Below the pieces are notes generated by a model that searched no databases, was not told the DNA's origin, and saw nothing but the letters and a program-made list of their open reading frames with translations. From the IMG/VR virus record IMGVR_UViG_3300033475_001489, positions 1 to 40,888 of that record: 40,888 bases of DNA; one strand, written 5' to 3'. Both the position numbers and the translations under genes were made by a program. The DNA is from a virus. Lineage: Duplodnaviria; Caudoviricetes. Shown here one piece after another: positions 9,933-40,471 of the stretch (position 1 is the first letter of the stretch; every line of letters begins with the position of its first letter).

Positions 9933-10021
9933 TCACCCAGAGGACAGCAGGACATTACTGATGAACTTTGATGTATATTTATATAGCTCATAAAGAAGGT
10001 CACCAAATGTCATCCTGGTGA
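9933..10021. repeat. Tripartite inverted-arm element E1 (89 bp, two long arms)
   Basis: TCACCCAG 9933; core ATGTATA-TT-TATATAG 9971-9986; CCTGGTGA ending 10021. Confidence 0.85.
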
Positions 10022-10059
10022 TAATCATCATCTTTATGCTGTACGCTTGTAAAAAAATA

Positions 10060-10088
10060 TGTACAAAATAGCGATATCAATGTATAAT
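10060..10088 (+). promoter_or_regulatory. TGTACA-N17-TATAAT promoter
   Basis: Family match. Confidence 0.8.
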
Positions 10089-10130
10089 GTATTTATAATG
10101 CTGAATATGAAAAAAATAAAGGAGAAACAA

Positions 10131-10343
10131 ATGTCGAGCGCGAAAAGTGGAGAGTTTATCTGTTGCGATTGCAAAATAAAGTTTGATGAGGGATTTGAGG
10201 GTGAGGTTTTTGAAAAAGATGGCCAAAAGCAAACCCGTTGTGGGTATTGCTATAATATGAAGAATGAAAATACGCAATTAAGCATCGTAAGCTTATTGGA
10301 GGACGTAGATACACTACGTAAATTAGGAGATGTTTCAGAGTAA
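10131..10343 (+). CDS. Small Zn-finger-like hypothetical protein
   Basis: CCDC...CGYC; GGAG RBS at 10121 sets ATG 10131. Confidence 0.7.
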   Translation: MSSAKSGEFICCDCKIKFDEGFEGEVFEKDGQKQTRCGYCYNMKNENTQLSIVSLLEDVDTLRKLGDVSE

Positions 10344-10444
10344 TATTGCTGTTTTTAGTTACAAGATACTCATTAGGATACGTAGAGTATCCTATTTTTG
10401 TGCTGCTTTTATTTATAAAATTGTAAATGAATATTTTTTTAATA

Positions 10445-10473
10445 TGTACAATTTGTCAAAAATAGTTTATAAT
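10445..10473 (+). promoter_or_regulatory. TGTACA-N17-TATAAT promoter
   Basis: Family match. Confidence 0.8.
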
Positions 10474-10515
10474 ACTATCATAAAGTTAAATGTTAAATTA
10501 AAAAGGAAAAAAGAA

Positions 10516-10878
10516 ATGAAAATCGAAATGGTTACATCACCAGAAACTATTGCTGAATTGCATCTGAAGGAAATTTCCAGAGAAGATCGAATCAATTCGA
10601 ACCTTAAAAAAATAGAATCAATGAACTCTGTTGTTGCGATCATTGTTTTTGGACAAAAGTACAAGATCATTAAAGCAGAAAAGAATAGTGATTTTCTACA
10701 TGATATTGAAATATTTTTATTAAAAGAAGAAATTAAACCGCCATTCACGGCAAATTCTGTCGTTCGCCAAGAAACAAGAATCTCTCCATCAGCGCAATAC
10801 GTCTATTCTCTTATCAAACAAATCGAAAAAATCGTACGTATGGATAAAGTTAACACGACATTCATTATAGAATTGTAA
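10516..10878 (+). CDS. Hypothetical protein
   Basis: ATG 10516 downstream of promoter and AAGGA. Confidence 0.65.
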   Translation: MKIEMVTSPETIAELHLKEISREDRINSNLKKIESMNSVVAIIVFGQKYKIIKAEKNSDFLHDIEIFLLKEEIKPPFTANSVVRQETRISPSAQYVYSLIKQIEKIVRMDKVNTTFIIEL

Positions 10879-10889
10879 AAGGAGTTACA

Positions 10890-11561
10890 GTGGCGTATAC
10901 TGAATTTGTGGGAAAAGGTAGATTCCCAAAAAGAGTTACAGAGATAGCAGAGAAAATCAAAGAAGAAATCAAAGAAGTTTTAAGTAACAGTAAAGATGAC
11001 GACCTGGATTATAGCAAGATAGAGCTCGATTCTGGTTTTATTGCAAACATGACAGACATAAGAGATGATAAAATAATTCTCTATTTCATTCATGTTCTCA
11101 TCGACACAGGCTGCACAGCAATCATCATTTCTGAACGACCAAATGGCGTACTCAGGTACGTCAGTCAGGGATCAAATGAGCAGTTGTATAGAGTATCAAT
11201 GCAGTATTATCATTGTGGCGATATAAAAAGTGAAGAGGAGGAGTCAACCGAAGGAAAAATCGTTCTGTATGATGGAATTTATAGATTCCCTGATGATGTA
11301 CAAAGTGTTATAGAAGAAGATATCAGCGAAGAAGATAAAAGACATATTGATGGTGTTGCATTTATGATTGTTGCTTACAATCTTGTTTATTACTACGTTC
11401 ATATTGTGATAGATGGTGCGTGTAAAGGTCTTGTTTATGCACTTTCTTCTAGCGGCGAAAATGATGATGAACGCATAATCACGAGAGTGACTGTACAGAC
11501 AACATTAATGGCATTTGATCAAAAATATCATCAAAAACTCATCATTGAATCTGCGAAATAA
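10890..11561 (+). CDS. Hypothetical protein with an internal domain duplication
   Basis: GGAG RBS; two RFP..V...E.I.EE.K...Y..H..ID..C units. Confidence 0.75.
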   Translation: MAYTEFVGKGRFPKRVTEIAEKIKEEIKEVLSNSKDDDLDYSKIELDSGFIANMTDIRDDKIILYFIHVLIDTGCTAIIISERPNGVLRYVSQGSNEQLYRVSMQYYHCGDIKSEEEESTEGKIVLYDGIYRFPDDVQSVIEEDISEEDKRHIDGVAFMIVAYNLVYYYVHIVIDGACKGLVYALSSSGENDDERIITRVTVQTTLMAFDQKYHQKLIIESAK

Positions 11562-11570
11562 TAAATGTAG

Positions 11571-11596
11571 ATAGCCTCTATTTATTTAGGGGCTAT
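11571..11596 (+). terminator. Hairpin, possible terminator
   Basis: atagcctcta-loop-taggggctat. Confidence 0.5.
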
Positions 11597-11618
11597 TGTT
11601 GGCATTTAGGAGAAACAG

Positions 11619-11960
11619 ATGAGAAGACAAATAAACAGTAGAAAAATTGTATTTCCACAATGGAAATTTGGTACTGCATATGTTGCAGATAGAGAGCTTC
11701 TATGCGCAGGTTTTGAGTGTGGAAAAATAATCGAACAAGGAGAATTATATACTCGTAAAAAAGTGGAAATCGTAAAAATTACCACTAATTCTAGCATTTC
11801 TGTTCACCCATTTTGTAGGAAATGTATTACGTTTGTAGAGGCAGATATTGCAGAAATAGAAATGACGCTTCTAGCAAAATATAGACTTACAAAATATGGA
11901 AAAATAGATACTGACTTAGCAGCCTATAACAAATCAGATTCACAAACATTTTACTTATAA
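11619..11960 (+). CDS. Zn-finger-like hypothetical protein
   Basis: CAGFEC...GE.Y...FCRKC; AGGAG RBS. Confidence 0.7.
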   Translation: MRRQINSRKIVFPQWKFGTAYVADRELLCAGFECGKIIEQGELYTRKKVEIVKITTNSSISVHPFCRKCITFVEADIAEIEMTLLAKYRLTKYGKIDTDLAAYNKSDSQTFYL

Positions 11961-11975
11961 CAAATTGGAGTACTA

Positions 11976-12446
11976 ATGATAAAAGACACCAAAGTTCAAT
12001 CTATTAATGCAGAACTCGCAAATGGTGAAACAATTTTCGCAAATGATGGAAGTTCATGCCGTTTTGACAGAGCAAAAGGATCATTTGTTCACGTCAAAGG
12101 CAAAGATGTTCATTATTTCAAACAATTTGGAGAGCTTGCAAGTTTTATAGCATTTTTTAATGCTGAAACAGATAAAAAAGAAGAAACGGCAACAAAAAAT
12201 CGCAAATGGTTTGTTTTAACAGCAGAGAGAGTGTATAGCAACTTTCATACAAAGCAAGAAGCTTCTGATTTTTGTGTTCAAGCTTTTGAAAATCAGCCAT
12301 ATAAAATTAGCAAAATAAATCAAGGCATATATGTCTGCGCTTTGAAAAAGAACTCTGTAAATAGTTACTATATAGGTATCAGAGAGAATTTAATAGAAAG
12401 TGGATTCGGCGAACAAATTAAAAAATGGGAAGAAAAGCAAAAATAG
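11976..12446 (+). CDS. Hypothetical protein
   Basis: GGAG RBS, operon continuity. Confidence 0.7.
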   Translation: MIKDTKVQSINAELANGETIFANDGSSCRFDRAKGSFVHVKGKDVHYFKQFGELASFIAFFNAETDKKEETATKNRKWFVLTAERVYSNFHTKQEASDFCVQAFENQPYKISKINQGIYVCALKKNSVNSYYIGIRENLIESGFGEQIKKWEEKQK

Positions 12447-12447
12447 G

Positions 12448-12476
12448 TGTACTTTTCATAAATTTTGTTATATAAT
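12448..12476 (+). promoter_or_regulatory. TGTACT-N17-TATAAT promoter
   Basis: Family match. Confidence 0.75.
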
Positions 12477-12519
12477 TGATATTAATATAGTAATTTTAAA
12501 TAATAATAAGGATAAAAAA

Positions 12520-12699
12520 ATGCAATGTGAACATGAAAAATTAAACCAATGCCGTAAATGTCGTATGTGCGTCAACTGTTGTGAGTGCTCCTCGAATCGA
12601 CAAGTAATACGAAGACCATTTAGAACAAAGTATGTTGATCATGAGGAATTGAGACGTCAAAAGACTGTGCGGAGAACACGACAAGAAACGACATATTAA
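12520..12699 (+). CDS. Small Cys-rich protein
   Basis: MQCEH...CRKCRMCVNCCEC, downstream of promoter. Confidence 0.6.
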   Translation: MQCEHEKLNQCRKCRMCVNCCECSSNRQVIRRPFRTKYVDHEELRRQKTVRRTRQETTY

Positions 12700-12708
12700 C
12701 CAAATGCC

Positions 12709-12743
12709 AAAAAGGAGGTAGTGAATGCTACCTCCATTTTTTT
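12709..12743. terminator. Bidirectional intrinsic terminator
   Basis: aaaaa-ggaggtag-tgaatg-ctacctcc-attttttt between convergent genes. Confidence 0.75.
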
Positions 12744-12996
12744 ATCTGTTTCTATAACTTGCAAGAGCAGGAGAACTATCGAAATGCCATTTTGCATTTG
12801 TCGTTTTTACAGGATTTCTGTATCTTGAACCAATATCTATCGCATCAGCGAAATTTTTCTGTTTAATTTTTCTTACAGAAAATGTCTCTTTTTCAGCAGG
12901 CATAAGTGCTGCTGTTGTTTTAAAATTCCCATTTCTGTTGCTTTCACTACTTTTTACAATTTTGTTACTAGCAGCATAAGGAATAATCTCCGACAT
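12742..12996 (-). CDS. Hypothetical basic protein
   Basis: GAGG RBS upstream of ATG 12996; start uncertain. Confidence 0.55.
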   Translation of the reverse strand: MSEIIPYAASNKIVKSSESNRNGNFKTTAALMPAEKETFSVRKIKQKNFADAIDIGSRYRNPVKTTNAKWHFDSSPALASYRNR

Positions 12997-13151
12997 GATG
13001 ATCATGCCTCTATTAAAGAGGTGCCTCGTAATTTTGCTTTTAATTGTGCTTGAGCCAACAATTTTCAGTGTCATTTCTGTTAACATGTTTCTTTTCTTTC
13101 GCTATCTTTGTTTCTAATTTTCTTCTTACATTTTCTGTTCTACGAGATGCA

Positions 13152-13769
13152 CTACTCTTCTACTATCTGTGCCGTTGTCGTGATAGCTTTTATACTCATT
13201 TTGCTGATGAAGTTATCGAGAATATCTACTTCCTGCTCTGACAGAAGAGAAATATCTACACTTGACGATGGAGATTCGTTTTCATTTGAGTTTCTATTGC
13301 TATTATTTTCAGTGCTGAGACCGAGTGCCAATCTTCCAGCTTTTTGCCAGTTGACAGCTGCTCTACCGAGTCGATCAAGGCTCAATTGATCAAGAACTTT
13401 GCCATCTGCAGATGCAGTATCAATGTGCATAAGAATATGGTCCATAGCACGCTGAGCTGCTGTGATGCACGTTTCATTGAATCGGTCTGCAGCTTTGATA
13501 TAATCATCCATATTTGCTGCAGATACCCATTTATGCAGTTTCGCTTGCCAATTTTCCCTCTTATTGATCCACTGGCCCTCATTCATTCTACGATGAACAG
13601 TTGAATACGGAATATCGTGTGCCTCTGATATCTCAGTGAGAGTAGGATAATAAACTTCTCCATTAGGTTGAAGAAGCCCCTGAACGAATTGCCTCTCTAT
13701 GATCTCCCAAGAGATATTTGTGCTATTGATAGAAACGACTTTTCCTTTTTTGACTCCCCTTGATGCCAT
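13152..13769 (-). CDS. Terminase small subunit-like protein (N-terminal HTH)
   Basis: W..I...F..G...TL.EIS..H.IPYSTV.RR...W...R HTH, helical middle, GRLALGL.TE, DISLLSEQE tail. Confidence 0.65.
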   Translation of the reverse strand: MASRGVKKGKVVSINSTNISWEIIERQFVQGLLQPNGEVYYPTLTEISEAHDIPYSTVHRRMNEGQWINKRENWQAKLHKWVSAANMDDYIKAADRFNETCITAAQRAMDHILMHIDTASADGKVLDQLSLDRLGRAAVNWQKAGRLALGLSTENNSNRNSNENESPSSSVDISLLSEQEVDILDNFISKMSIKAITTTAQIVEE

Positions 13770-13782
13770 AATGCGTTTACCC

Positions 13783-14037
13783 CTATATGATCGGCCTCTT
13801 CATTTCTATTTCGATCATTTTGGCCTTCTTCTTTAATTCAGCGTATCTCTCAACGCTATCTTTGCCGACCATCTTTTTATCGCCAACAATAATTTCTTTA
13901 AGGCACCTATCTTCCATGAGACGATATACTTGTGTTCTTGACATTCCTAACAGCCGACTAGCATGCTGCACAGAAACAATATTTTTTATTACTCTTGAAT
14001 CAGTTTCATTTGACAATTCATTTGATACTTCATTCAT
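13783..14037 (-). CDS. Excisionase/HTH_17-like DNA-binding protein
   Basis: SVQHASRLLGMSRTQVYRLM...L..I.VG...V...SVERY; GGAG RBS before ATG 14037. Confidence 0.8.
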   Translation of the reverse strand: MNEVSNELSNETDSRVIKNIVSVQHASRLLGMSRTQVYRLMEDRCLKEIIVGDKKMVGKDSVERYAELKKKAKMIEIEMKRPII

Positions 14038-14226
14038 ATAAAAATCTCCATAGTCTATAATGTTTGATACTATTATAATATACAATTGAGTGTATTTTAC
14101 ACACATTACAAAAAATGGTTTTAGAACGTAAAAGGTCATAGTGTCAATGAGTTTTTCATAACTATATACTTTTTTCTCATTTTGTATTATAATTTATATA
14201 AGAAGTAGTGCAAAAAGAAGAAAAAT

Positions 14227-14499
14227 ATGAAAGAGAGAACAACAAGAAGAGAAATAAGTCGAATAAAAAATGAAATTGAGAAATTCCTTGAAACATACGG
14301 GACTAATGATATTGATATCATGATTAATGGTAATCGTTATCATATAGTGACTCAAGATAATCAAAGATACATCATTTGTGTTCTCAGGAATGAAGTATGG
14401 TTTGCCAACTTGAGAAAAAGCGATCCAAAGAGAGTGATACATATCGAAAAGTCGAATCACTACGAAAGGGAAATGAGAAATGCTAAGTTTGTTCGATGA
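14227..14499 (+). CDS. Hypothetical protein
   Basis: Downstream of variant promoter TATACT-N17-TATAAT (14165-14193). Confidence 0.65.
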   Translation: MKERTTRREISRIKNEIEKFLETYGTNDIDIMINGNRYHIVTQDNQRYIICVLRNEVWFANLRKSDPKRVIHIEKSNHYEREMRNAKFVR

Positions 14500-14680
14500 A
14501 AATCACAAGTACACTGATCATGGGAAGTATCTTGATCTGGCTGCTGATGCGGCATTGAAACAGATTTTTGAGAAATTTTTGCAATTAGGATATTCGCCAA
14601 GAGAGATCTCCCATATTATACAGCTCAAAGTAACAGAATTCGAAACTCAGGCAATCGTTGAAAATGATTTGAAGAAGTAG
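14480..14680 (+). CDS. Hypothetical protein
   Basis: Overlapping operon gene, GYSPREI motif. Confidence 0.65.
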   Translation: MLSLFDENHKYTDHGKYLDLAADAALKQIFEKFLQLGYSPREISHIIQLKVTEFETQAIVENDLKK

Positions 14681-15408
14681 TGGAGAATGACGTGAGAGAA
14701 GTTACAGAAGTTCATATCGATATCGACGGGACAATCGCTAGAGAAAACAAAGATTCATTGTTAGAATTGTGCAATGAGATTTTTAAATTAGGCATTGACA
14801 AAAATCAGTTGAAGAATGTTTCTTTAGAGCGATTTCATTGGCTTCCTCGCGTCATTGAATATCGCAATCAGATCGGCGATGAAGTATATAATAATCAATT
14901 TAAAAAAATGCAGTATCATCCTGAACACATTGCAATACTGCACACGATAGCAGATGCTGTTGAAGGTGTAAACCAATTACATGCCGTTGCAGATGATTTA
15001 TACTACAACACATGCAGATTTACAAGACATACTCGGTGGAATGCAGATATTCAGCGAATGACACATTTCTGGCTAGAGACGAAAAATTTCCCAAATCATG
15101 AAAAGACAATATTCTGCGAAGGATATCACGGAAAATTAGTGAGTATCCTGAGCAGATTAAGAGAAAATTCAGATCTCAGAATTATTTTAATCGACGATAA
15201 CGCCGAAGTTCAGCTGCAGTTCTTCGATCAACTCGCAAGAAAAGATCAAGAAATTGTAGCATCACGATTAGTTCTTGTAGGTTTTAGTTTTGATGAAGAA
15301 GAGTTATTGCCAGATATGCCAATTCGGCTACATTCACTGGAAAAATGGCAAAATGTGAAACAGCTAATTGAAAAGGAGTTCAAAAATGGCGGACAAAAAC
15401 AAAGATAA
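14680..15408 (+). CDS. HAD-superfamily hydrolase, 5'(3')-deoxyribonucleotidase-like
   Basis: DIDGTI motif I, T.R, T..WL...FP, K, LIDD motif IV. Confidence 0.75.
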   Translation: MENDVREVTEVHIDIDGTIARENKDSLLELCNEIFKLGIDKNQLKNVSLERFHWLPRVIEYRNQIGDEVYNNQFKKMQYHPEHIAILHTIADAVEGVNQLHAVADDLYYNTCRFTRHTRWNADIQRMTHFWLETKNFPNHEKTIFCEGYHGKLVSILSRLRENSDLRIILIDDNAEVQLQFFDQLARKDQEIVASRLVLVGFSFDEEELLPDMPIRLHSLEKWQNVKQLIEKEFKNGGQKQR

Positions 15409-15706
15409 CAGACGATATGATATGGGCGGATTTCAGTCTCATGACGGTGGTGGCCATGATGGCGGAGGTTACGGTGGATCTGGTGATAGTGACAATGCTC
15501 GAGATCCAAATTGTCGATTTTGCAAAAATAATGAACGTTGTCCATATATTGTCTGGAGCGATATCACCGGTGGTTATATTCACGATTCAAGCGGTTCTGC
15601 TACGTATTCAGAGAAAATAATCACAGACAATAGCTTTCCGACAGTTGAAAAGACGCCACGTCCAGGAGACAAAGATAAAAAGAAGAAAGGATTCTTCAAC
15701 TGGTAA
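15386..15706 (+). CDS. Gly-rich, Cys-containing hypothetical protein
   Basis: AAGGAG RBS; HDGGG repeats; CRFC....C. Confidence 0.65.
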   Translation: MADKNKDNRRYDMGGFQSHDGGGHDGGGYGGSGDSDNARDPNCRFCKNNERCPYIVWSDITGGYIHDSSGSATYSEKIITDNSFPTVEKTPRPGDKDKKKKGFFNW

Positions 15707-17978: not shown

Positions 17979-18057
17979 TCACCCAGATGACAATTCCTCG
18001 TTATATGTATAAATATACATCTTTTTTGATTTAAGTCATCAAATGACCTCTGGGTGA
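17979..18057. repeat. Tripartite element E2 (79 bp)
   Basis: TCACCCAGATGA; perfect core ATGTATA-AA-TATACAT 18005-18020; CTGGGTGA. Confidence 0.9.
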
Positions 18058-19269: not shown

Positions 19270-19324
19270 AAACAAGCTCCTAGGAGAGATCCTAGGAGTA
19301 TTTTTATGCGTTGTTTTAGAACGA

Positions 19325-19403
19325 TCACCCAGATGATAATTTAGCACGAGCTATATAAATATATATCTACATTTATGGAGGTCCCCAATTTTCACCCTGG
19401 TGA
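19325..19403. repeat. Tripartite element E3 (79 bp)
   Basis: TCACCCAGATGA; core CTATATA-AA-TATATAT 19351-19366; CCTGGTGA. Confidence 0.88.
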
Positions 19404-19474
19404 TGACAATTTGTGATCAAGAGACAGAAAAATAGCCTGGTACGAAAAATACCAGGCAGTAAAATGAAAAAACT

Positions 19475-23720: not shown

Positions 23721-23742
23721 ACACTAAAAGGCCTCTGGCTAA

Positions 23743-23819
23743 TCACCAGAGGTCATTTTGGGCTTTCAATAGTAAAAGATGTATATTTATATAGCTCAAG
23801 AGCTACTGTCGTCTGGTAA
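23743..23819. repeat. Tripartite element E4 (77 bp, flipped orientation)
   Basis: TCACCAGAGGTCA; core ATGTATA-TT-TATATAG 23779-23794; GTCGTCTGGTAA arm lies inside the 3' end of a CDS. Confidence 0.8.
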
Positions 23820-24320
23820 GTCCTGAGCAACAGTCCAGGCGCTCGAGTATATCGACTTAAGATTGCTTGCATATTCTCGTGCAAATGATTCTGTCGCCCA
23901 AAAGCCTATGTCCTGCACGCTATTAACCGCGCTGCACATGATAAGAATGTTTGCCGTTTGGTTATAAGGGACCATTTCTTTCGGTTCAACAATAAACTCG
24001 TTTGCTCTATATTTTACACCAAAAACATCTAAAAGGGCAGAATCAGAGTTGAGACCAACAGCAGTAAGAGCCGTTAATGTTTTGTTCACTTGATGAATAA
24101 GTGTGTCTATCGGTGTTGTAAGATCAATAGAGTCTTTTTTAGAGTCTACGATCTTTCTGTGCTCAATGTATGTATTAGCATGATGCTCGAATTCGAATGT
24201 GACTCTACGACCGTTCTCCCAGTAGTCCGACCATAGGACACCATCAAATGTTGGAATAGCGAATTGTGGAACCCATCTGTGAGTCCCTTCAGGTTTTACT
24301 TTATAATCTCTTATAAGCAC
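23796..24320 (-). CDS. Two-domain hypothetical protein; C-half paralogous to 27485..27787
   Basis: GGAGG RBS before GTG 24320; shared VN..L..L...G[VI]KY...F......[ST]E.F.R.Y...L. Confidence 0.7.
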   Translation of the reverse strand: MLIRDYKVKPEGTHRWVPQFAIPTFDGVLWSDYWENGRRVTFEFEHHANTYIEHRKIVDSKKDSIDLTTPIDTLIHQVNKTLTALTAVGLNSDSALLDVFGVKYRANEFIVEPKEMVPYNQTANILIMCSAVNSVQDIGFWATESFAREYASNLKSIYSSAWTVAQDLPDDSSS

Positions 24321-24330
24321 GATTTCCTCC

Positions 24331-24618
24331 TTAAAGCATAAATCTTCTAACACCAGGTTCTTCTTCTGGAAGAAATTTCAGAATATAGTGCAGTGCCTGA
24401 ATTTCTGTTGAATACGTCACAATGACGTTCTCTATTGTTTCTCCATTAGGAGCACGTAGATCATACTTTATTTTTTTCTTTACGTATGACATCCATGAAT
24501 TTCTTCTACTATCAAAGTATTGAGGATAGCAGAAATTTTCAACGATATCGATTCTGAAGCCGCTGAAACCTTCTTGTGTAAAAAGTTTCTTCGTTTCATC
24601 TAAAGTCAAAGCTCGCAT
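24331..24618 (-). CDS. RFML-tail paralog 6
   Basis: LFTQEGFSGFRI...YPQY...W..Y...GVRRFML; GAGGTGG RBS. Confidence 0.8.
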   Translation of the reverse strand: MRALTLDETKKLFTQEGFSGFRIDIVENFCYPQYFDSRRNSWMSYVKKKIKYDLRAPNGETIENVIVTYSTEIQALHYILKFLPEEEPGVRRFML

Positions 24619-24628
24619 AATTCCACCT

Positions 24629-24904
24629 CTATAACATGAATCGCTTGATTTGTCCTTCTTCATCTTCCACAGTAACATCATCTTCAAAAATGTACATTAT
24701 AGCAGAGGATCCGAATAACATAGAAACAGGAGCAAGTTCTTGATTTTTATAAAATGATTTTGTAAATCTCATATATGGAGTCCATTTTCCTATATTGTCA
24801 ACAAACTTTTCAGGAAAATATCTTTCTCCATCGTGTCTAATTCTATCACCATTATATCCATTTTCTGAAAAAAGTTTGTTGACAATATCTCGAGATATTC
24901 TCAT
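24629..24904 (-). CDS. RFML-tail paralog 5
   Basis: LFSENGYNGDRI...FPEK...W.PY...IKRFML. Confidence 0.8.
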   Translation of the reverse strand: MRISRDIVNKLFSENGYNGDRIRHDGERYFPEKFVDNIGKWTPYMRFTKSFYKNQELAPVSMLFGSSAIMYIFEDDVTVEDEEGQIKRFML

Positions 24905-24912
24905 GATTCACC

Positions 24913-25176
24913 TCATAACATATATCGATGTACATGCGCATCTTCAGTATGAATAAATTTTGAAACATAATTTAGCGCTGCAAGCGCTGTGAAAAAACTA
25001 ATATCTTGATCTTTACGAGTTCCGTCACTATTTAATTCAAATTTGCTACAAGGTATCCACTTATTCTCTAGAGTATTTTTAAACTCTGGGCAATGTTTTT
25101 CTTCTTTTATGATAATCCTAAAATTTTGATATCCTTCTTCGGTGTAAAGACGTTCTATGATTTCATTCGCGAGCAT
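24913..25176 (-). CDS. RFML-tail paralog 4
   Basis: LYTEEGYQNFRI...CPEF...W...VHRYML. Confidence 0.8.
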   Translation of the reverse strand: MLANEIIERLYTEEGYQNFRIIIKEEKHCPEFKNTLENKWIPCSKFELNSDGTRKDQDISFFTALAALNYVSKFIHTEDAHVHRYML

Positions 25177-25188
25177 TTTTATTTCTCT

Positions 25189-25452
25189 TCACAACATGAA
25201 TCGTTTGATTGATGATTCTTCTTCAGGAAGTAATCTCGTAATATGATTAATCGCGGCAAGGTCTGTTTTATAACCGCATGGCTCAGAATAAGTTAAACCA
25301 TCAGAATTTGTTTTTACCATTGTATATTGCTGCCATGAATCTTTATCGTGATCAAAGTATTCAGGAAACCTCTTCTCCATGGTAACGATTCTGAAACCAA
25401 GGTAACCTTCTTCTGTATAAAGTTTTTCTATGATTTCATCACTAATATTCAA
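25189..25452 (-). CDS. RFML-tail paralog 3
   Basis: LYTEEGYLGFRI...FPEY...W..Y...IKRFML. Confidence 0.8.
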   Translation of the reverse strand: MNISDEIIEKLYTEEGYLGFRIVTMEKRFPEYFDHDKDSWQQYTMVKTNSDGLTYSEPCGYKTDLAAINHITRLLPEEESSIKRFML

Positions 25453-25733
25453 AGCATGAATCTCCTTATTTTAGGCTCTTCATTCTCGATTAATTCAATA
25501 ACAAAAGATATTGCATCTACTCTATTCTCAAAGAATAGTGTTTCATACGTTGTAACAGGTTTGTTTGTATCTGTAAATGTGACTGAAGTTTTTTTTATAT
25601 GTGGTTTCCATATATTCGCGACATAATCTTTATATTCTGGGAAAAACAAATCATCTATTCTACTAATTCTAGTGCCGCTGTACCCGTCCTTTGTAAAAAA
25701 CAAGTCTATGATTTTATTATCAAATATCATCAC
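25449..25733 (-). CDS. RFML-tail paralog 2
   Basis: FFTKDGYSGTRI...FPEY...W...IRRFML. Confidence 0.8.
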   Translation of the reverse strand: MMIFDNKIIDLFFTKDGYSGTRISRIDDLFFPEYKDYVANIWKPHIKKTSVTFTDTNKPVTTYETLFFENRVDAISFVIELIENEEPKIRRFML

Positions 25734-25743
25734 AAATTAATCC

Positions 25744-26037
25744 TCAAAGCATGAATCTTCTAACACCAGATTCTTCTTCTTTGTCTGGAAGAAGTTTTCC
25801 GATATAATGCAGTGCTTCTGGTGTTGCAGAATCGAAAGACACAATTTCGAACGATATATCTGCACTTTCTTTGCTGTCGTCAAGTTTCGTAATGCGCTTC
25901 AAGTACGATTTCCAAATATTCATAAAACGATCTTTATATTCAGGATACTCTATTCCGTCTTTCACAAAGATTCTAAAACCATTATATCCAGTATCAGAGT
26001 ATAATTGATGCACAATATCGTTATTGATAAATTTCAC
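25744..26037 (-). CDS. RFML-tail paralog 1
   Basis: GGAGG RBS before GTG 26037; LYSDTGYNGFRI...YPEY...W.SY...GVRRFML. Confidence 0.8.
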   Translation of the reverse strand: MKFINNDIVHQLYSDTGYNGFRIFVKDGIEYPEYKDRFMNIWKSYLKRITKLDDSKESADISFEIVSFDSATPEALHYIGKLLPDKEEESGVRRFML

Positions 26038-26510
26038 ATGTACCTCCCAATGCCATCCCAAGCATTTGTGAATTTGTATCTATCATACTGATCTTTTTCT
26101 ACAGGTTCATGCTCTTCGAAGTAAACTAGATGTTCATCAATCTTCTGCTGGATTTTTGCTAGACTACCCTGAACTCTAGCACGTTTCTTTTGCTCTAGCA
26201 ATTCATTGAGCTCTTTGAGTCTTGTTTCACACTCTTCAGTGACGAGAATGTCTCTGATTTCATCCCATTCTACATAGAATTTAATTTCATTGGCATTGTC
26301 GAAGACTCTTCGGACAGGAATACCGAGAAGAACAAATTTTATCATTCTGCGGTTCAAGAGTTGCAGCGTCTCGTGTTTGTAAGAGTGGTCGTTCTCATTT
26401 CTTGAGTCTCTTAGGATATCTACCATATCTACCTCAAGCATATCGAGCGTCTTACGAATATCAGTCTTTGTGATTTTGCGAGTCTTCAGGTCATCGATGG
26501 CATTTTTCAT
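26034..26510 (-). CDS. Hypothetical protein, paralog family A
   Basis: HE...F..LGIP...YV....DIL....C...LKELN shared with 26971 and 28837. Confidence 0.75.
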   Translation of the reverse strand: MKNAIDDLKTRKITKTDIRKTLDMLEVDMVDILRDSRNENDHSYKHETLQLLNRRMIKFVLLGIPVRRVFDNANEIKFYVEWDEIRDILVTEECETRLKELNELLEQKKRARVQGSLAKIQQKIDEHLVYFEEHEPVEKDQYDRYKFTNAWDGIGRYM

Positions 26511-34119: not shown

Positions 34120-34198
34120 CTTACCAGATGACAGTAGCATTGTAGATGTATATTTATATAACTTTTTTCTTTGTGGTCCCCAATTGTGATCTGGGTGA
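34120..34198. repeat. Tripartite element E5 (79 bp)
   Basis: CTTACCAGATGAC; core ATGTATA-TT-TATATAA 34146-34161; CTGGGTGA. Confidence 0.85.
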
Positions 34199-34221: not shown

Positions 34222-34250
34222 AAAAAAGAAGAGGATATTTCACCTCTCAT
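34222..34250 (-). terminator. Intrinsic terminator, repeated family
   Basis: gaggatatttcacctc core flanked by an A tract. Confidence 0.7.
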
Positions 34251-34514: not shown

Positions 34515-34543
34515 ATTATAATATAGAATCACTAGAATGTACA
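34515..34543 (-). promoter_or_regulatory. TGTACA-N17-TATAAT promoter
   Basis: Family match. Confidence 0.85.
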
Positions 34544-34600
34544 TATTCTGGCAACGAGTTTTTTGTTTATTGTGAGAAACTCGTAAAACTCACATTTTTT

Positions 34601-34822
34601 TTAGATTAAATCATTGCTAACGAAATCGCGTGTAACTTGTAACAGTATGTAGTTACGAGTGCCGTCGTTCACTTCGATCGTTTCCAAATCACGGCTTCCA
34701 GCGAACACTTCCAGAGTTTTGTTATACGTTTCCAAACTTTTTGTGATCGTAAAATCAACAACTTGAGGATTGTTGACGACGTCGAAAAGATTTGCGTTCT
34801 GTTTGAGTGTCATGTTGCGCAT
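34601..34822 (-). CDS. Hypothetical protein
   Basis: Cassette gene, AAGGAG RBS. Confidence 0.7.
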   Translation of the reverse strand: MRNMTLKQNANLFDVVNNPQVVDFTITKSLETYNKTLEVFAGSRDLETIEVNDGTRNYILLQVTRDFVSNDLI

Positions 34823-34871
34823 TTAGATTTCTCCTTTTCCGTTTACGTAAGTTCATTTAACTTACATTCTT

Positions 34872-34900
34872 ATTATAACCTGTTTTTATGAGAATGTACA
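34872..34900 (-). promoter_or_regulatory. TGTACA-N17-TATAAT promoter
   Basis: Family match. Confidence 0.85.
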
Positions 34901-34977
34901 TAGTTTTCATACGAATTTCTATGATTTTGTAAATATTCGTTGAAACTCATAAAATAAGGAGGGGTTTCCCCCTCCTT

Positions 34978-35214
34978 CTATATAGCTTCGCCTGTCTCGT
35001 CGTCTTTAAACTCCCAATATGTTTCTGGGTGATCGTCGTCATCCTCTGGCCAATCTATCTCGACTAATGCAATTCCGGCATAATTTGCCAAACGCTTCAA
35101 TTTATTGAACTCATTGGTGTTGGCCTCGACATTTTCACCACGGTTGATTTTACGCTGCAATTCGTTGATCTCGTCGAACTTTGTGTACCAGTAGTCATAG
35201 TTGATGTTTTTCAT
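34978..35214 (-). CDS. Hypothetical protein (weakly similar to 18144..18374)
   Basis: KLKR....G..LVEI..PEDD motif shared. Confidence 0.7.
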   Translation of the reverse strand: MKNINYDYWYTKFDEINELQRKINRGENVEANTNEFNKLKRLANYAGIALVEIDWPEDDDDHPETYWEFKDDETGEAI

Positions 35215-35244
35215 TTTCGTTTCTCATTTTCAATTTCTAAATAT

Positions 35245-35273
35245 ATTATACACTGTTTTCACCTAAATGTACA
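35245..35273 (-). promoter_or_regulatory. TGTACA-N17-TATAAT promoter
   Basis: Family match. Confidence 0.85.
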
Positions 35274-35372
35274 TAGTTTTCGTACGAGTTTCTATGAATT
35301 TATACAAATTCGCCAAAATTCGTTGTAGAAAAGTGTCCAAGAGAGCACATTTTGATGAAAATATGTGTACGA

Positions 35373-35451
35373 GCACCCAGATGACCGCGGGCCCGTAGAT
35401 GTATAAATACTTAACTTATTTCTTTAAAGCTCCGGATTATGACCTGGGTGA
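35373..35451. repeat. Tripartite element E6 (79 bp)
   Basis: GCACCCAGATGAC; core ATGTATA-AA-TACTTAA 35399-35414; CTGGGTGA. Confidence 0.82.
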
Positions 35452-35487
35452 TCATAATTTTATCCAAGACTCTCCCGGGAACATGGC

Positions 35488-35518
35488 AAAAAAAAGGAGA
35501 GGATATTTCACCTCTCCA
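35488..35518 (-). terminator. Intrinsic terminator, repeated family
   Basis: Same sequence as 33400-33430. Confidence 0.8.
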
Positions 35519-35529
35519 GAATTTGAAAA

Positions 35530-35718
35530 TTAGTGAACTTTTTTCTTCATGTGGACTACGTCTTCTGTTTCCAATTCGATAATTTCAACTTTTTCAACAT
35601 GGTTCAAATCGAAGAGTCTATCGAATGTGCTGTACGCCAAAGATTCTTTCTCGTATGTGGCTGGCCAAAAATAAATTTTCTGATCCTCTTTGTTGGTTGT
35701 GCATTTGATTACGTACAT
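35530..35718 (-). CDS. Hypothetical protein
   Basis: Cassette gene, AAGGAG RBS. Confidence 0.7.
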   Translation of the reverse strand: MYVIKCTTNKEDQKIYFWPATYEKESLAYSTFDRLFDLNHVEKVEIIELETEDVVHMKKKVH

Positions 35719-35761
35719 TTGCGTTTCTCCTTTATTTTTCTCATTTCCAATTTCTAATATA

Positions 35762-35790
35762 ATTATACACTAGAATCATGCAAATGTACA
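35762..35790 (-). promoter_or_regulatory. TGTACA-N17-TATAAT promoter
   Basis: Family match. Confidence 0.85.
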
Positions 35791-35888
35791 TAGTTTTTAT
35801 ACGAATTTACACGAGTTTCTGAAAATTCGTTGTGGATTCGAGGCAAAAAAAACGCTTCCAGATTTCTCTGGAAGCTTGAGATTATTCA

Positions 35889-36137
35889 CTAAAAATTGCC
35901 TACAATATCGTCGATGAAGATTTCTTTATAAATTGGATAAGAACCTTCATCATAACCTGGATTAACTTCCTCCCAATCTCGAACTTGAATACGACCACCT
36001 CCATTAATATGACGAATCATTTGATCGAAGAAAATCATACGATTCGTTCGAACATTAATCCAAGTACCTGAATGTGTGACGCGAACCGTCATAACGTTAT
36101 CGCCTTCGAGAGAATCTTTAGAATAACCGTCTGCCAT
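35889..36137 (-). CDS. Hypothetical protein
   Basis: AAGGAG RBS before ATG 36137. Confidence 0.7.
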   Translation of the reverse strand: MADGYSKDSLEGDNVMTVRVTHSGTWINVRTNRMIFFDQMIRHINGGGRIQVRDWEEVNPGYDEGSYPIYKEIFIDDIVGNF

Positions 36138-36181
36138 TTTGTTTTCTCCTTTTACTTTATGCATTTCCAATTTCTAAGTAT

Positions 36182-36210
36182 ATTATACACTGTTTTCACG
36201 TATTTGTACA
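36182..36210 (-). promoter_or_regulatory. TGTACA-N17-TATAAT promoter
   Basis: Family match. Confidence 0.85.
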
Positions 36211-36390
36211 TAGTTTTCACGTATTTTAACGAATTTCTATGAATCTACGAAAAATCGTCATTTTTACCCATATTAAAATAAATGCTATAGGAGAGAGAAT
36301 CAATAGAGAAGAAACAGAAAGATTCATGTTATAATTCGCCATAGAATTAACAAACTGATGCAAAAGTGCTAAAATTTACATAAAAAACTA

Positions 36391-36419
36391 TGTACTTTTT
36401 AGCACTTTTATAGTATAAT
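36391..36419 (+). promoter_or_regulatory. TGTACT-N17-TATAAT promoter
   Basis: Family match, followed by ATATTTAGAAGTT. Confidence 0.85.
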
Positions 36420-36465
36420 ATATTTAGAAGTTAAACAAAACAAGTAAACAGCAAAGGAAAAGCAA

Positions 36466-36711
36466 ATGATAATCGAAGAATTGATGCAAAATGTAATCGA
36501 TGAAAATGAAACGAGAGTTGTGTACTTTGAGATAGAAGGAATTCTTTACACGTTTTTAGATGCAGAATTGTTTATTGCAACGGATGCAAATGGAGAATCT
36601 GTAGAGTATGTAAATTTATCTTTAGCATTTGATGGTGAAAATGAAAGTGCTGAATTTAATGTCCTCTTAACACAAGAATCATTTGAGAAAAAGTTTAACG
36701 AAAGAAAATAA
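36466..36711 (+). CDS. Acidic hypothetical protein
   Basis: Downstream of promoter and RBS. Confidence 0.7.
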   Translation: MIIEELMQNVIDENETRVVYFEIEGILYTFLDAELFIATDANGESVEYVNLSLAFDGENESAEFNVLLTQESFEKKFNERK

Positions 36712-36722
36712 AGGAAAAAGCA

Positions 36723-36980
36723 ATGAGATGGCCAAACGAGCAGGATGATCCCGATATGGATCAAGAATATCGAGTTGGAGATATTGTCTATAAAAGAGGA
36801 GACATGAAAACGTCATTAGTGATGGTTCGCATTGGAAATAGTAAGACAGAATTTGATTATCAGGTTCGTACACCAAATGGCGAATTAATCTCTATTGATT
36901 TAGATAGTATCGCAACACCATGTGAGCACGGATTTGACTCTCAATCATGCCAAATTTGTGTAAATAAGCTTAATGATTAG
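36723..36980 (+). CDS. Hypothetical protein (SH3-like beta barrel with Cys/His tail)
   Basis: YRVGDIVY...YQV; CEH......C..C. Confidence 0.65.
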   Translation: MRWPNEQDDPDMDQEYRVGDIVYKRGDMKTSLVMVRIGNSKTEFDYQVRTPNGELISIDLDSIATPCEHGFDSQSCQICVNKLND

Positions 36981-37021
36981 AATGTACAAAGCAGATGTAG
37001 ATCGCAAAGGAGAAAAGTGAA

Positions 37022-37387
37022 ATGAGTGAATCTGTAAACAAAACAAGATTGCTACCATGTAAAACATGTCCATGGAGAAAAAACAGAGATTCATCAACTA
37101 TTCCTGGATATAATCAAGAAAAAGCAGAAAATTTACTTCATACAGTCGGCGAAGGTGATGCTTTTCGTAGTGTAATGGCATGTCATCACTCTACTGATGA
37201 AAATACATTTGCCTGTAACGGGTATCTTGCTAAAGAAGGTTGGCATAATCTCAATGTCAGACTTTTACTCATCTCTGAAAAAATAAACAATCCAACCCAA
37301 GTATTAGAAGCATGCGAAGAAGCAGGCATTGAGCTTGAACCAGATTACTATACAGTTTTAGAAAAATTAAGGAGGAGTGAAAAATAA
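37022..37387 (+). CDS. DUF6283-like Cys-rich protein
   Basis: PC..CPWR...ACH.S.......C.GYL motif. Confidence 0.7.
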   Translation: MSESVNKTRLLPCKTCPWRKNRDSSTIPGYNQEKAENLLHTVGEGDAFRSVMACHHSTDENTFACNGYLAKEGWHNLNVRLLLISEKINNPTQVLEACEEAGIELEPDYYTVLEKLRRSEK

Positions 37388-37436
37388 GGTATAATTATCT
37401 TAGAAGTTGTAAATAACTAAAATACAAAGGAGAAAT

Positions 37437-37778
37437 ATGAACGTAAAAGATTATCAAAAATCAATTCAACGGACATTGGCTATGCCTGACGGGAGTCCGA
37501 TGAGTAAAGACGAAGCGATAAAATTGGCACTCGTTGGAATCTTGGATGAAGCGGGTGAAATTGCCGGCCCTCTGAAGAAACATTTCTGGCACGGACATCC
37601 AATGCCACTGACACAAGAGATGACTGACGAAATCGGAGATCTATTGTGGTATGTATTCACACTTTGCAATGCCCTTGGCATCGATGGTGAACGAGCAATG
37701 GATAAAAACATCGAAAAACTGAAACGGCGTTATCCCGACGGATTTTCCTCTAACAATTCTATAAACAGGAATAAATAA
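37437..37778 (+). CDS. mazG: MazG-like nucleoside triphosphate pyrophosphohydrolase
   Basis: EAGE...KK...HGH...DEIGD.LWY...N..KL..RYPDGF. Confidence 0.9.
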   Translation: MNVKDYQKSIQRTLAMPDGSPMSKDEAIKLALVGILDEAGEIAGPLKKHFWHGHPMPLTQEMTDEIGDLLWYVFTLCNALGIDGERAMDKNIEKLKRRYPDGFSSNNSINRNK

Positions 37779-37779
37779 G

Positions 37780-38079
37780 ATGCTCAGAAAAGAAAAAGAA
37801 ATATCACTTCTAATCATTGCTTTGCAGTCATATCACGATCGTCAAGGGAATTATTTTCCTGTAGATGAGAGTGAAATGCAGAAAGCAATAGATTCAGTGA
37901 TAGAAGCAAAGAAAAAAGTAAATTGCAGTCAAGATGCAATTTTGGCAAGAATTTTCTCTGATAGAGACGGCACTGAAGAGATAGTCCAAAAGTTGATAAA
38001 TCTTGCAACTGCTCTAACAGACTATGATAACGTTATCCACGATCAACTTCTTTATGTTCGCGGTAACCTTTTAAGATAA
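37780..38079 (+). CDS. Hypothetical protein
   Basis: Abuts mazG. Confidence 0.65.
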   Translation: MLRKEKEISLLIIALQSYHDRQGNYFPVDESEMQKAIDSVIEAKKKVNCSQDAILARIFSDRDGTEEIVQKLINLATALTDYDNVIHDQLLYVRGNLLR

Positions 38080-38219
38080 TTCAGCATGACACTTTCATGT
38101 TTTGACCTTGTTTCCCGGGTTCTCGTGTTTGTTTTCGCGTGTTTCAAAACCACTTCCCGATAGCAGTTTCCTGGATTTCCATGTCAAGACGACGGGCCTC
38201 GACTGACGGAATTGGGAAC

Positions 38220-39020
38220 AACTTGCTGGTACCGTGGCGCGTGACAGGTCAGAGGCGGCGGCTGGTACCGTTGTGATGAGGGCATTGTGCTGTGCCTCAC
38301 ACATCGTAGCCTCGCCACCTCAGAGCCGTGGCATGGGCGGTGGTCCACCTTATGCGCATAGCGTGACGCGTCGTGCGGCGTGGTGCTCGTCTCTGCTCCA
38401 TCAAAGATACAGCGTGTACATCATATGTGTCATATACCGCTGCTAGGCCACGGTGTATAGGCCTGCTAATGCTGACGTGCCTGCTGCAGCTACACCACTA
38501 CAGGAGACATCACATTCGCTGTGCCTCTGCTCTTGCTCTGCTGCGTGTCTATCTGCCTCTGCTGCATTGTGCTATGCAGTGTGTGCCACGCCTGCGCACT
38601 ACAATATGCCTGTGTATGCACCACAGGGGGTACACCTGCATAGGTATACATATACGGTATACAGTGTATATAGGGTACACTATACCTGTGTACAGGGCAC
38701 TAGCACCGGTACAGTATCGTACCATGCATACCTGTGCATATGTGCCTCTGCACAACGTACCTCTGTGCCTGTGGCCTCTCTGAGGGCGTGTCTCTGCAGG
38801 ACGACGAGAACGACGGCATTGTCACGTCACGTTGTGCGCGCCTTGCACCTGTGCGTATATGTAACGTGCTGCTGCCCTCTGTGCCATTGGCGTGTACGCT
38901 GTAGCAGACCGTACGCCTGCGCTATATAGGGTAATGTGGTGTAGCTCTATATACATATATACAACTGAGGGATAGTACCCCTGCAGAGGGATAGACTCTG
39001 TAGAGACTCGTCATAGAAGT
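38220..39020. other. Non-coding, purine/pyrimidine-alternating, A/T-tract-depleted island (candidate genome terminus, pac or origin region)
   Basis: One AAA and no TTT seen in ~800 bp; many TGTG/TATA/GTAC/TGCA words; flanking genes converge on it. Confidence 0.6.
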
Positions 39021-39167
39021 AACATTTGACTGGTGTCACAGAGAGGCCTTTCTGGGTCGTCTTTCGGTTCGCAGGCTCACAAGCCGGTTTCATATTTGGG
39101 GTCGCTCGTGCCAACGAGAGTCATGACCGGGGGACGTTGGCACGGCGGCTGCATCTTTGACCGAGGA

Positions 39168-39416
39168 CTAGAAGTCCTCAGCATCCATAGAAGGCTCCTC
39201 GTCCTCAGCTGGGGCCTCAGCCTCTGCACGCATCTTTGCGGCTCGGTCGAGGTAGAAGCGAAGGGCCCACGCCACCAGACGCTCTGGGGTCGTATTGGGC
39301 AGGTCCGCCTGAGCCGCTGCCAACTCGGCCTCCCAGCGTGCCTTGTAGGAGTCTGGCAGATGCAGCTCTCCAACTGTGAGGGTGAATGCGGCTGGGGTGA
39401 TGTTATTGTTTGTCAT
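39168..39416 (-). CDS. Small RHH-like protein with acidic tail
   Basis: LVAWALRFYLD resembles IVSWAVRMFLD of 19824..20519; AAGGAG RBS. Confidence 0.7.
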   Translation of the reverse strand: MTNNNITPAAFTLTVGELHLPDSYKARWEAELAAAQADLPNTTPERLVAWALRFYLDRAAKMRAEAEAPAEDEEPSMDAEDF

Positions 39417-39463
39417 TTTTGTTTCTCCTTTTGCGATTTAACTGTTACTCAACTTCTAAATAT

Positions 39464-39492
39464 ATTATAACATGTTTTCAACTGAATGTACA
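39464..39492 (-). promoter_or_regulatory. TGTACA-N17-TATAAT promoter
   Basis: Family match. Confidence 0.85.
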
Positions 39493-39549
39493 TAGCTGGT
39501 GTACGAGTTTCTACGTTTTCTACAAAGTTCGTAGAAACTCGTTTCCGCT

Positions 39550-39828
39550 TTATGGGCGGAATGGGAAGATGGAGGCGAGTTTGGTATTGATGACGCGGAC
39601 GATATCTTCCTGAGTCTTCTCTGCGATACCCTCGATCGCTGTATTGTGCATTCTTGCGATATTGGCGAAATCTGGATCGGTGAGATCTGCACCTTCGAGG
39701 AGGTTATCTACGGCCTCGAACTCTTCGGCGATTTCAACTGCGTCGTAGTCACCTGTGCGGCGAGCGATGTAGAAGAGATTGCGGAAGGTTTTGAAATTGT
39801 AGGTGTAGGTTTTGTTGTTGTCTTTCAT
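39550..39828 (-). CDS. Hypothetical protein
   Basis: Cassette gene, AAGGAG RBS. Confidence 0.75.
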   Translation of the reverse strand: MKDNNKTYTYNFKTFRNLFYIARRTGDYDAVEIAEEFEAVDNLLEGADLTDPDFANIARMHNTAIEGIAEKTQEDIVRVINTKLASIFPFRP

Positions 39829-39873
39829 TTTCGTTTCTCCTTTTGCGGTTTCGCATTTTCAATTTCTAAATAT

Positions 39874-39902
39874 ATTATACACTGTTTTCGTACGTTTGTA
39901 CA
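39874..39902 (-). promoter_or_regulatory. TGTACA-N17-TATAAT promoter
   Basis: Family match. Confidence 0.85.
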
Positions 39903-39958
39903 TAGCTGGGGTACGAGTTTTTTGTATTTTAGAGAAACTCGTAAAACTCGTTGTTTAT

Positions 39959-40195
39959 TTAATCCTCCCAACCATCGTCTTCGACGTCTTCAGCTGGAGG
40001 CAATTCTACGTCGAAGTTTGCTACGAAGACACCTTTATACGCTGGTCGAAATTTCAACTCTTGAGTCTCCAAATTGCGTACTTCGCAAAAAGTAGGATTG
40101 AAGACGGTGACGGAATGCCAGACTCCCATCCACCATACAAATGTTCCAACTCGCAAATCTGCATTCATCACTCGTTTTACTTTTTCGTTCGACAT
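39959..40195 (-). CDS. Small SH3-like hypothetical protein with acidic tail
   Basis: ADLRVGTFV...W..V; AAGGAG RBS. Confidence 0.7.
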   Translation of the reverse strand: MSNEKVKRVMNADLRVGTFVWWMGVWHSVTVFNPTFCEVRNLETQELKFRPAYKGVFVANFDVELPPAEDVEDDGWED

Positions 40196-40243
40196 TTTCG
40201 TTTCTCCTTTGTGATTTGTATTCGTTACTCAACTTCTGATATA

Positions 40244-40272
40244 ATTATAACATAGAACCGCTAGAATGTACA
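40244..40272 (-). promoter_or_regulatory. TGTACA-N17-TATAAT promoter
   Basis: Family match. Confidence 0.85.
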
Positions 40273-40392
40273 TAGTTTTCGTACGTATTTTAACGAATTT
40301 CTAGATATTCACAAAAACTCGTTGGTTCAGAGTCACGTTAGGAGGGCCCAGAGTCTCGAAAAAGGCCTCCAGAGTCACAAACTCACGTGTCA

Positions 40393-40471
40393 TCACCCAG
40401 GTCACAGAGTCTGGGAGATGTATAAATATATGTCTAGAGTCTACGGAGGTCACCAGGAGTCACCTGGGTGA
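40393..40471. repeat. Tripartite element E7 (79 bp)
   Basis: TCACCCAG; core ATGTATA-AA-TATATGT 40418-40433; CTGGGTGA. Confidence 0.88.

Follow-up and report, generated by a model that had tools for sequence, protein, structure and literature searches.

The DNA analysed here, the 40,888 nucleotides of IMG/VR virus record IMGVR_UViG_3300033475_001489 (the window), carries terminase, portal, protease and probable capsid genes, which mark it as a fragment of a tailed phage. These genes lie on the minus strand within 413..9585, with the probable major capsid protein at 413-2170, the head protease at 2182-3819, the portal at 3806-7510 and the terminase large subunit at 7987-9585. Beyond them are seven copies of a composite DNA element, E1 to E7, each with a core and directional arms. 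E1 (9933..10021; core 9969-9988, spacer TAAATA on the minus strand) has two long arms, with the terminase operon on one side of it and an early promoter, at 10058, on the other. E2 (17979..18057; core 18003-18022), which lies between convergent genes, and E3 (19325..19403; core 19349-19368) have a short left and a long right arm; in E4 (23743..23819; core 23777-23796) the left arm is long and the right arm short. E5 (34120..34198; core 34144-34163), E6 (35373..35451; core 35397-35416, with one half degenerate) and E7 (40393..40471; core 40416-40435) complete the set. No tRNA or Rfam family was found in the window.

All seven elements were found where the initial annotation had placed them. In leave-one-out nhmmer searches every held-out copy was recovered with an E value of 1.1e-9 to 2.5e-16, against E>=0.26 for the best non-element match, and chance is therefore excluded; there was no eighth full copy in the window. 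E2, E3, E5, E6 and E7 are 79 bp long, as had been reported, E1 is 89 bp and E4 is 77 bp; in E7 the short arm sits 1 bp nearer and the long arm 1 bp farther than in the other four of 79 bp. The reported distances from the central dinucleotide to the two ends hold in six of the seven copies (32-33 and 43-45 bp) but not in E1, whose two long arms give 45/42. Placement between genes also holds for the most part, except that the short arm of E4 overlaps the last codons of the open reading frame (ORF) at 23796-24353, and four copies do lie at strand switches, E1 between divergent and E2-E4 between convergent gene blocks.

Further assemblies extend this source phage. A second assembly is 99.99-100% identical across window positions 1-26615 and reaches 7 kb beyond the window start, and a third bridges the join between the window and another record, G004, at 100% identity. 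G004 and the window together make an 87-kb composite, with which the third assembly agrees at 100% in seven of seven pieces and whose genes include DnaE, RecA, primases and tail genes. The genome bin of the third assembly is labelled Cyclobacteriaceae, probably through mis-binning, because the only matches to our model at E<=0.1 in that bin sit on this contig. The 33.6-kb sister assembly shows two differences from the window over 18.6 kb, one of them within E3 (L005:7201-7303), where it falls on position 10 of a core half. We also compared a relative, G001, which is circular and complete at 134 kb and has replication and structural modules in common with the source phage; if the source phage is of the same size, roughly a third of its genome is missing from the composite, and a metagenome pattern scan did not recover the missing part. 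One capsid homologue is labelled Ktedonobacteraceae, and close homologues of the G001 recombinase include Tengunoibacter and Chloroflexota proteins; because of these labels we infer that the host belongs to the Ktedonobacteria.

A profile scan of the rest of the genome and of relatives, which the initial annotation had proposed, yielded further copies in the source phage, in G001, in a third phage, G007, and in others. The source phage has at least 12 copies in 87 kb, five of them beyond the window in the adjoining replication and structural regions, with gaps of 1.3 to 22.7 kb between elements. These 12, which themselves formed the training set of the model, score 25.9-60.1 against 20.7 for the best of 20 shuffled genomes. 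With copies in the replication and structural regions, the elements are therefore a genome-wide family and not an early-gene feature. This removes the suggestion that they shuffle early-gene cassettes, as the replication and structural regions hold 5/12 copies, 5/5 copies in G007 lie between late genes, and no rearrangement was seen in three assemblies or against G001.

A model trained on the source phage alone found two sites above the null in G001, and an iterative search found about nine, six of which were in training while 4069, 12136 and then 119871 were new. Candidates at 69423, inside a gene, and at 58040, where the arm is missing, were dropped. When the spacer length was altered as a control, spacers of 4, 5, 7 and 8 bp gave 2, 2, 1 and 0 intergenic matches in G001, against nine for 6 bp. 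G007 is an HK97-type phage with an unrelated capsid and has five sites in 16.9 kb, scoring 51.6, 38.2, 36.6 and 23.6 with the model trained on the source phage and 17 for the fifth; one of these sites was selected by the search pattern. The motif of the source phage resembles that of the unrelated G007 more closely than that of G001.

Two sites were found in G009, one in G012, and an arm fragment at a contig end in G013. With a wider model, 15 of 49 records had a match at E<=0.05, and multiple matches occurred only in G001, G006 (the source phage), G007 and G009, all of which had fed the training; among the 49 records, G002, G003, G005, G021 and G022 had no site. Three relatives of 45-103 kb carry none, no similar family emerged when G002, G003 and G005 were scanned de novo for dyads, and four capsid relatives of G007 had no sites within 4-14 kb. 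In a site-less relative of G007 (L293, ~4770-4860) we noted a perfect 22-bp palindrome beside a (TA)n tract, which ends in GATGTA/TACATC as the elements do but has a 10-bp centre. Presence of the element is patchy, copy density varies about five-fold among phages, and positions are mostly non-orthologous between the source phage and G001. The metagenome pattern scan returned 110 loci, most of which, beyond the source-phage contigs, were (TA)n tracts. Outside those contigs just one locus looked real, a single apparent element at L078:4900-4995 (score 41.5) beside a VWA/AAA gene pair on a phage contig of 27% GC; it was selected by the search pattern and is unproven, as is L019. Viral pattern scans gave 7, 19 and 8 loci, of which G007 was the sole new one. 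L003, L006, L280, L281, L284 and the other records of L261-L279 were rejected for chance-level scores, and DnaE and AAA-ATPase searches found no additional close relative with sites.

Comparison of these copies revised the anatomy of the site. The initial annotation had described a conserved core with a 2-bp centre; the conserved unit is instead a half-site, a 6-bp spacer and a second half-site. The core is a 20-bp dyad in which inverted 7-bp half-sites (AGATGTA/TACATCT) enclose the spacer. In 56 halves from several phages, conservation covers positions 4-10 as counted from the centre outwards (TACATCT or the variant TATARCT), and positions 1-3 are fixed in the source phage and variable between phages. 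The spacer reads TAAATA in 10 of the 12 source-phage copies, is AGAATW-like in G001, and is TGCAAC, TGCATA, TGAATA or TGGTTA in G007. Half-sites are enriched at this one spacing: in the 87-kb composite 6 bp gave 11 matches and each other spacing between 2 and 12 gave 0-1, and in G007 the figures were five and none, both sequences having belonged to the training set of that model. The halves are unequal: 8/12 source-phage copies pair a TACATC/TATATC half with one of the variant TATARC type. Mosaicism of half-sites, for which there is no control, is suggestive only.

About 11 unconserved bases separate the core from an arm, which begins two helical turns out, is directional and spans 22 bp. A long arm consists of two direct units, GTCCCCAAAT then GTCATCTGGGTGAT, and a short arm of the outer unit only, with arm boxes beginning 20-23 or 30-34 bp from the centre, one helical turn apart. 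Conservation across phages rests on the long arm; the second arm may be long, short (half) or absent, and is often absent in G001, and the outer ends are ragged. The filler of the arms does not pair (complementarity 0.20 within elements against 0.28 between them, with inconsistent folds), and covariation between core pairs is absent, with 447 of 500 shuffles reaching a score at least as high. The site works as double-stranded DNA. No conserved hairpin with compensatory changes and no Rfam match was present.

We then considered where the elements sit. Sites occur at gene boundaries, overlapping a stop codon in E4, in the source-phage copies A1 and A3 and in three G007 sites, and they are frequently found immediately after a terminator or in the space between two convergent ones. 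The long arm of E4 forms half of a terminator-like hairpin at 23732-23752. E3 is enclosed by two convergent terminator-like hairpins, one upstream at 19276..19299 (+) and one on its opposite side at 19435..19457 (-), and is at least 370 bp from any early promoter. E5 and E6 each lie downstream of a minus-strand terminator (34229-34248 and 35496-35517, respectively) and upstream of an early promoter. In such places a transcription roadblock or promoter would find little on which to act. At some sites the long arm faces upstream, at others downstream. The elements are also distinct from a larger family of sigma70-type early promoters (TGTACA-17-TATAAT). About 30 strong members of that family, TATGTAC(A/T)-17-TATAAT, lie at window positions 10058-40274 (e.g. 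23414 and 35245); they have a conserved downstream TATTTAGAA and a ribosome-binding site and head single genes or short cassettes, and G001 has a similar family.

The explanation we favour, at a probability of about 0.35, is that the elements are tightly controlled recombination sites at which an Xer-like tyrosine recombinase acts while an accessory protein occupies the arms. G001 encodes exactly one tyrosine recombinase; it is Xer-like with all six catalytic residues (R-K-H-R-H-Y) intact, and its gene closes a short series of co-directional genes whose start lies just beyond the site at 98927. We rank tyrosine recombination first because of the 6-bp geometry with unequal halves, the accessory arms, this intact enzyme and the transcription-quiet gaps in which the sites lie. 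A pair of recombinase molecules would bind the two half-sites and cut on each side of the 6-bp spacer, and a second protein would attach to the arms, recognising direct repeats with an 11-bp period, and would gate the reaction in the manner of the accessory sequences of cer/psi. Most often a site would recombine with a copy of itself on a multimer formed in replication; such self-to-self recombination would keep gene order unchanged and leave no trace in it, and accessory genes would be captured or lost only rarely. We infer each of these steps, from binding onward. Part of the initial proposal of a multi-site recombination or nucleoprotein system is retained here, namely a phased, multi-subsite site in double-stranded DNA; its serine-recombinase, early-cassette and T4-late readings are not.

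Several observations weigh against this explanation. The conserved halves measure 7 bp, against 11 bp in XerC/D sites, and their sequence is unlike that of dif. Within the spacer, G is absent at outward positions 2 and 3 in all 56 halves, a constraint that suits a 20-bp operator. No recombinase was found in the window, as the initial annotation had stated, or elsewhere in the 87 kb of the source phage or in 17 kb of G007; the representatives closest to the G001 enzyme are 32-43% identical to it, none exceeding ~43%, and the site-less G002 has an unrelated tyrosine recombinase. At non-conserved gene junctions of the region in common with G001 a site was found in 8/80 cases, against 0/36 at conserved junctions, but when only gaps of at least 80 bp are counted (7/33 vs 0/4) this link to variable junctions vanishes.

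Tests for rearrangement point the same way. The second assembly is colinear across E1-E4, all three assemblies are colinear across their common sites, and the source phage and G001 are colinear over ~55 kb with five sites, a stretch that reaches from A1 as far as the terminase gene next to E1. No rearranged junction was seen at the sites in the three assemblies or in the synteny with G001, assemblies being able to hide rare recombination products; contig ends do not coincide with sites. Spacers are identical in 45/66 pairs of source-phage sites, despite diverged filler, and in only 1/36 pairs in G001 and 1/10 in G007, so that the sites of G001 and G007, with mismatched spacers, would hardly be able to recombine together. 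The ten identical spacers of the source phage, several of them direct repeats around essential genes, would carry a risk of lethal deletion. Because the assemblies are colinear, gene order is kept and spacers in G001 and G007 are mostly mismatched, frequent exchange between different sites is unlikely. The ranking is fragile in any case, since the operator and architectural rivals set out below together outweigh recombination.

The sites invite comparison with known Xer targets. Two inverted halves around a 6-bp centre, as in dif and pdif, are present in the element cores; conservation stops at position 10 from the centre, so the 11-bp dif-like arms are not found, and the elements are therefore not classed as dif/pdif. 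Unlike dif/pdif, they have 7-bp instead of 11-bp halves and added phased 22-bp arms, and unlike pdif they occur in phages and also inside essential operons, with no module movement shown. At cer and psi, accessory DNA is longer and one-sided and serves PepA, ArgR and ArcA; those are single sites, unlike the many elements here with arms of 22 bp on one or both sides. Dif/pdif sites have a conserved XerD half, a variable XerC half and a variable 6-bp centre (PMC6449649), and pdif of Acinetobacter plasmids resembles the elements in its conserved inner inverted repeat, variable 6-bp centre and one more conserved half, and in its many copies per replicon at gene-module boundaries (PMC6449649). Cer and psi resemble them in a core with a 6-bp spacer and in flanking accessory DNA able to gate recombination (bioRxiv 10.64898/2026.02.23.706985). 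Predicted Chloroflexi dif sites cover Dehalococcoides only, so that no comparison was possible (PMC3025954).

The arm has a resemblance of its own. The direct repeat unit of the Streptomyces PhoP PHO-box is G(G/T)TCAYYYR(G/C)G (PMC2275107), and the arm box TGTCATCTGGG matches it at 10/11 positions, with the same 11-bp period. Unlike in the PHO-box, G is seldom the base at position 1, which is reported to be important, the match of the inner unit is poor, and the arm repeats point outward on both sides with no promoter following. The likeness is only a resemblance, and only a lead towards a host response regulator. The elements may also resemble the LexA box (TGT-N8-ACA) and the lambda Int arm sites.

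On a broader reading, which we regard as doubtful, phages with unrelated capsids whose hosts belong to one little-studied soil phylum may have converged on, or exchanged, a genome-wide array of composite sites that recruits a tyrosine recombinase and a phased accessory protein, either for gated multi-site resolution or accessory-gene capture or to hijack host chromosome management. Were it true, the array would be the phage counterpart of pdif arrays with a sequence code of its own. Simple palindromes dispersed over the genome are common in phages. A helically phased, two-part site of 80 bp that recurs nearly letter for letter in phages with unrelated capsids is uncommon, and we found no description of it in the literature searches made, in a BLAST search of E2 against named phages and plasmids, or in Rfam. 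Serine sites, T4 late promoters, stoperators and hairpin elements each have defining traits that the elements do not show. Should the site serve a tyrosine recombinase, enzyme and site would form a new pair, with spacer variants supplied by nature and a control arm built in, and would offer a route to study multimer resolution and accessory-gene gain in large phages; if a host protein binds it, the site would expose a DNA-management signal of the little-known Ktedonobacteria.

The foremost rival, unlikely on present evidence, is that the elements are non-cutting operators or roadblocks of a phage regulator, either stoperator-like or bound by an integrase-fold repressor such as SroF/YopR of the SPbeta type. 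A dimer would occupy the 20-bp dyad and a second protein or domain the arms, silencing transcription genome-wide. Placement at gene boundaries throughout the genome with frequent stop-codon overlap, a constrained spacer with a phage-specific consensus, and the lack of rearrangements all fit, and at 6/12 source-phage sites the distance to an early promoter is 80-180 bp. There is also precedent, in that cluster A mycobacteriophages have >20 dispersed stoperators, 13-bp asymmetric monomer sites oriented with transcription (PMC9283540), and in that the recombinase-fold protein SroF, which lacks the catalytic tyrosine, binds distant sites as a monomer on a 26-bp box (bioRxiv 10.1101/2025.11.27.690993; 10.1101/2022.10.21.513154). 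Like stoperators, the elements have many genome-wide copies in short intergenic spaces, and like SroF/YopR and SPBRE of SPbeta-like phages they would pair a tyrosine-recombinase-fold protein of a large phage with dispersed sites. However, monomers bind at stoperators and SroF boxes, both of which are asymmetric, and stoperators follow transcription, whereas the elements are composites of about 80 bp with a dyad core, no fixed orientation and a long arm facing either way. The G001 recombinase is catalytically intact, retaining the tyrosine that SroF lacks; no shared repressor was identified, and E3, between its convergent terminators, is far from any early promoter.

Ranked a little lower is an architectural or replicative role, in which the elements are dispersed origins, partition or anchoring sites, or sites of structural maintenance of chromosomes (SMC)/topoisomerase control, the core-arm DNA being bent by a host or shared protein; we think this improbable. 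The nine G001 sites are more evenly spaced around the circle than random placements (coefficient of variation 0.51; 3.4% of random placements are as even), on a list chosen by iterative search and partly selected. Sites occupy transcription-quiet gaps, the closer motif resemblance to the unrelated G007 than to G001 is what a host factor would predict, and the AT-rich centre, phased arms and length of about 80 bp are reminiscent of P1 parS; a link with XerD/SMC unloading would be conjectural. Against this, three relatives of 45-103 kb are site-less and density differs about five-fold. ParB and Rep/initiator families, and likewise sigma factors, were not found by Pfam in the 87-kb composite or in the scanned ORFs of G001 (141 + 54 of 208, a few twice), a scan that omitted large structural ORFs and four further ORFs and that divergent sigma factors can escape.

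A role as late or middle promoters that depend on an activator, the spacer region acting as a -10-like element, is a poor prospect. In their favour, the order terminator, element, ribosome-binding site, late gene is seen at E0, L010 and L011, unrelated phages have sites both in the portal/protease gap and behind the capsid gene, and spacer polarity often matches local transcription. The initial annotation had noted TATAAATA, the T4 late promoter consensus, in every core, and it is present in 7/7 window cores. However, it occurs 0 times in G007 and four times in the 134 kb of G001. Since the spacer varies between phages, both TATAAATA and the central AA/TT are local features, which undercuts the T4-late-promoter and serine-recombinase readings alike. 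The upstream arm type is variable, there is no consistent sigma70 -10 at a fixed offset, E2-E4 face convergent genes, with E3 between two convergent terminators, and Pfam returned no sigma factor.

There is little to commend packaging (pac-like) sites for a common terminase family. The terminases of the source phage, G001, G009 and G007 do belong to one family (43-66% identity) with the site-less G002 and G003 outside it, and two arms around a central site are reminiscent of SPP1 pac; but G005, of the same family and with the terminase closest to that of G001 (62.5%), has no site in 45 kb. A link between terminase and sites was rejected on account of G005; the capsid tree gave no resolution. 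The candidate small subunit at window 13152-13769, a helix-turn-helix protein, gave no informative match in a fold search and was found only in the source phage and G001 among the sequences compared. By eye it is like a terminase small subunit, and yet its gene is separated from terL by 3.6 kb in the window and by about 20 kb in G001.

The two remaining ideas are very improbable. Serine-recombinase crossover sites with a 2-bp centre, as first annotated, would suit the phased arms and the variation of only the central AA/TT within the window, but relatives vary the whole central 6 bp, PF00239 (serine resolvase) had no match in complete G001, in G004 or in the window, and the only serine resolvase found belongs to the site-less G005. 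A mobile or single-strand hairpin element (a miniature inverted-repeat transposable element, REPIN or attC-like) would account for patchy presence, non-orthologous positions and inverted ends, but is contradicted by the unpaired filler, inconsistent folds, absent core covariation, lack of an Rfam match, ragged outer ends and the second arm often missing in G001.

Some neighbouring genes also deserve mention. Beside site A3, at L031:17403-18733 (G004, source phage), lie genes for an Acb2/Tad1-type anti-defence sponge and a UDP-galactopyranose mutase, both without counterparts at that place in G001. In the window, the portal is 1234 aa long, with a long, acidic, lysine/alanine-rich C-terminal extension; positions 24331-26061 hold six tandem paralogous ORFs of 87-118 aa with similar RRFML-like tails and no Pfam or PHROG match; and 38373-39470 is a stretch of 49-52% GC with short repeats and no clear large ORF in a region of 35% GC. 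G001 encodes a nitric oxide synthase oxygenase adjoining a globin (L040:1501-3338), together with a Ser/Thr kinase (L039:9626-11974), a CAAX protease and a receiver domain.

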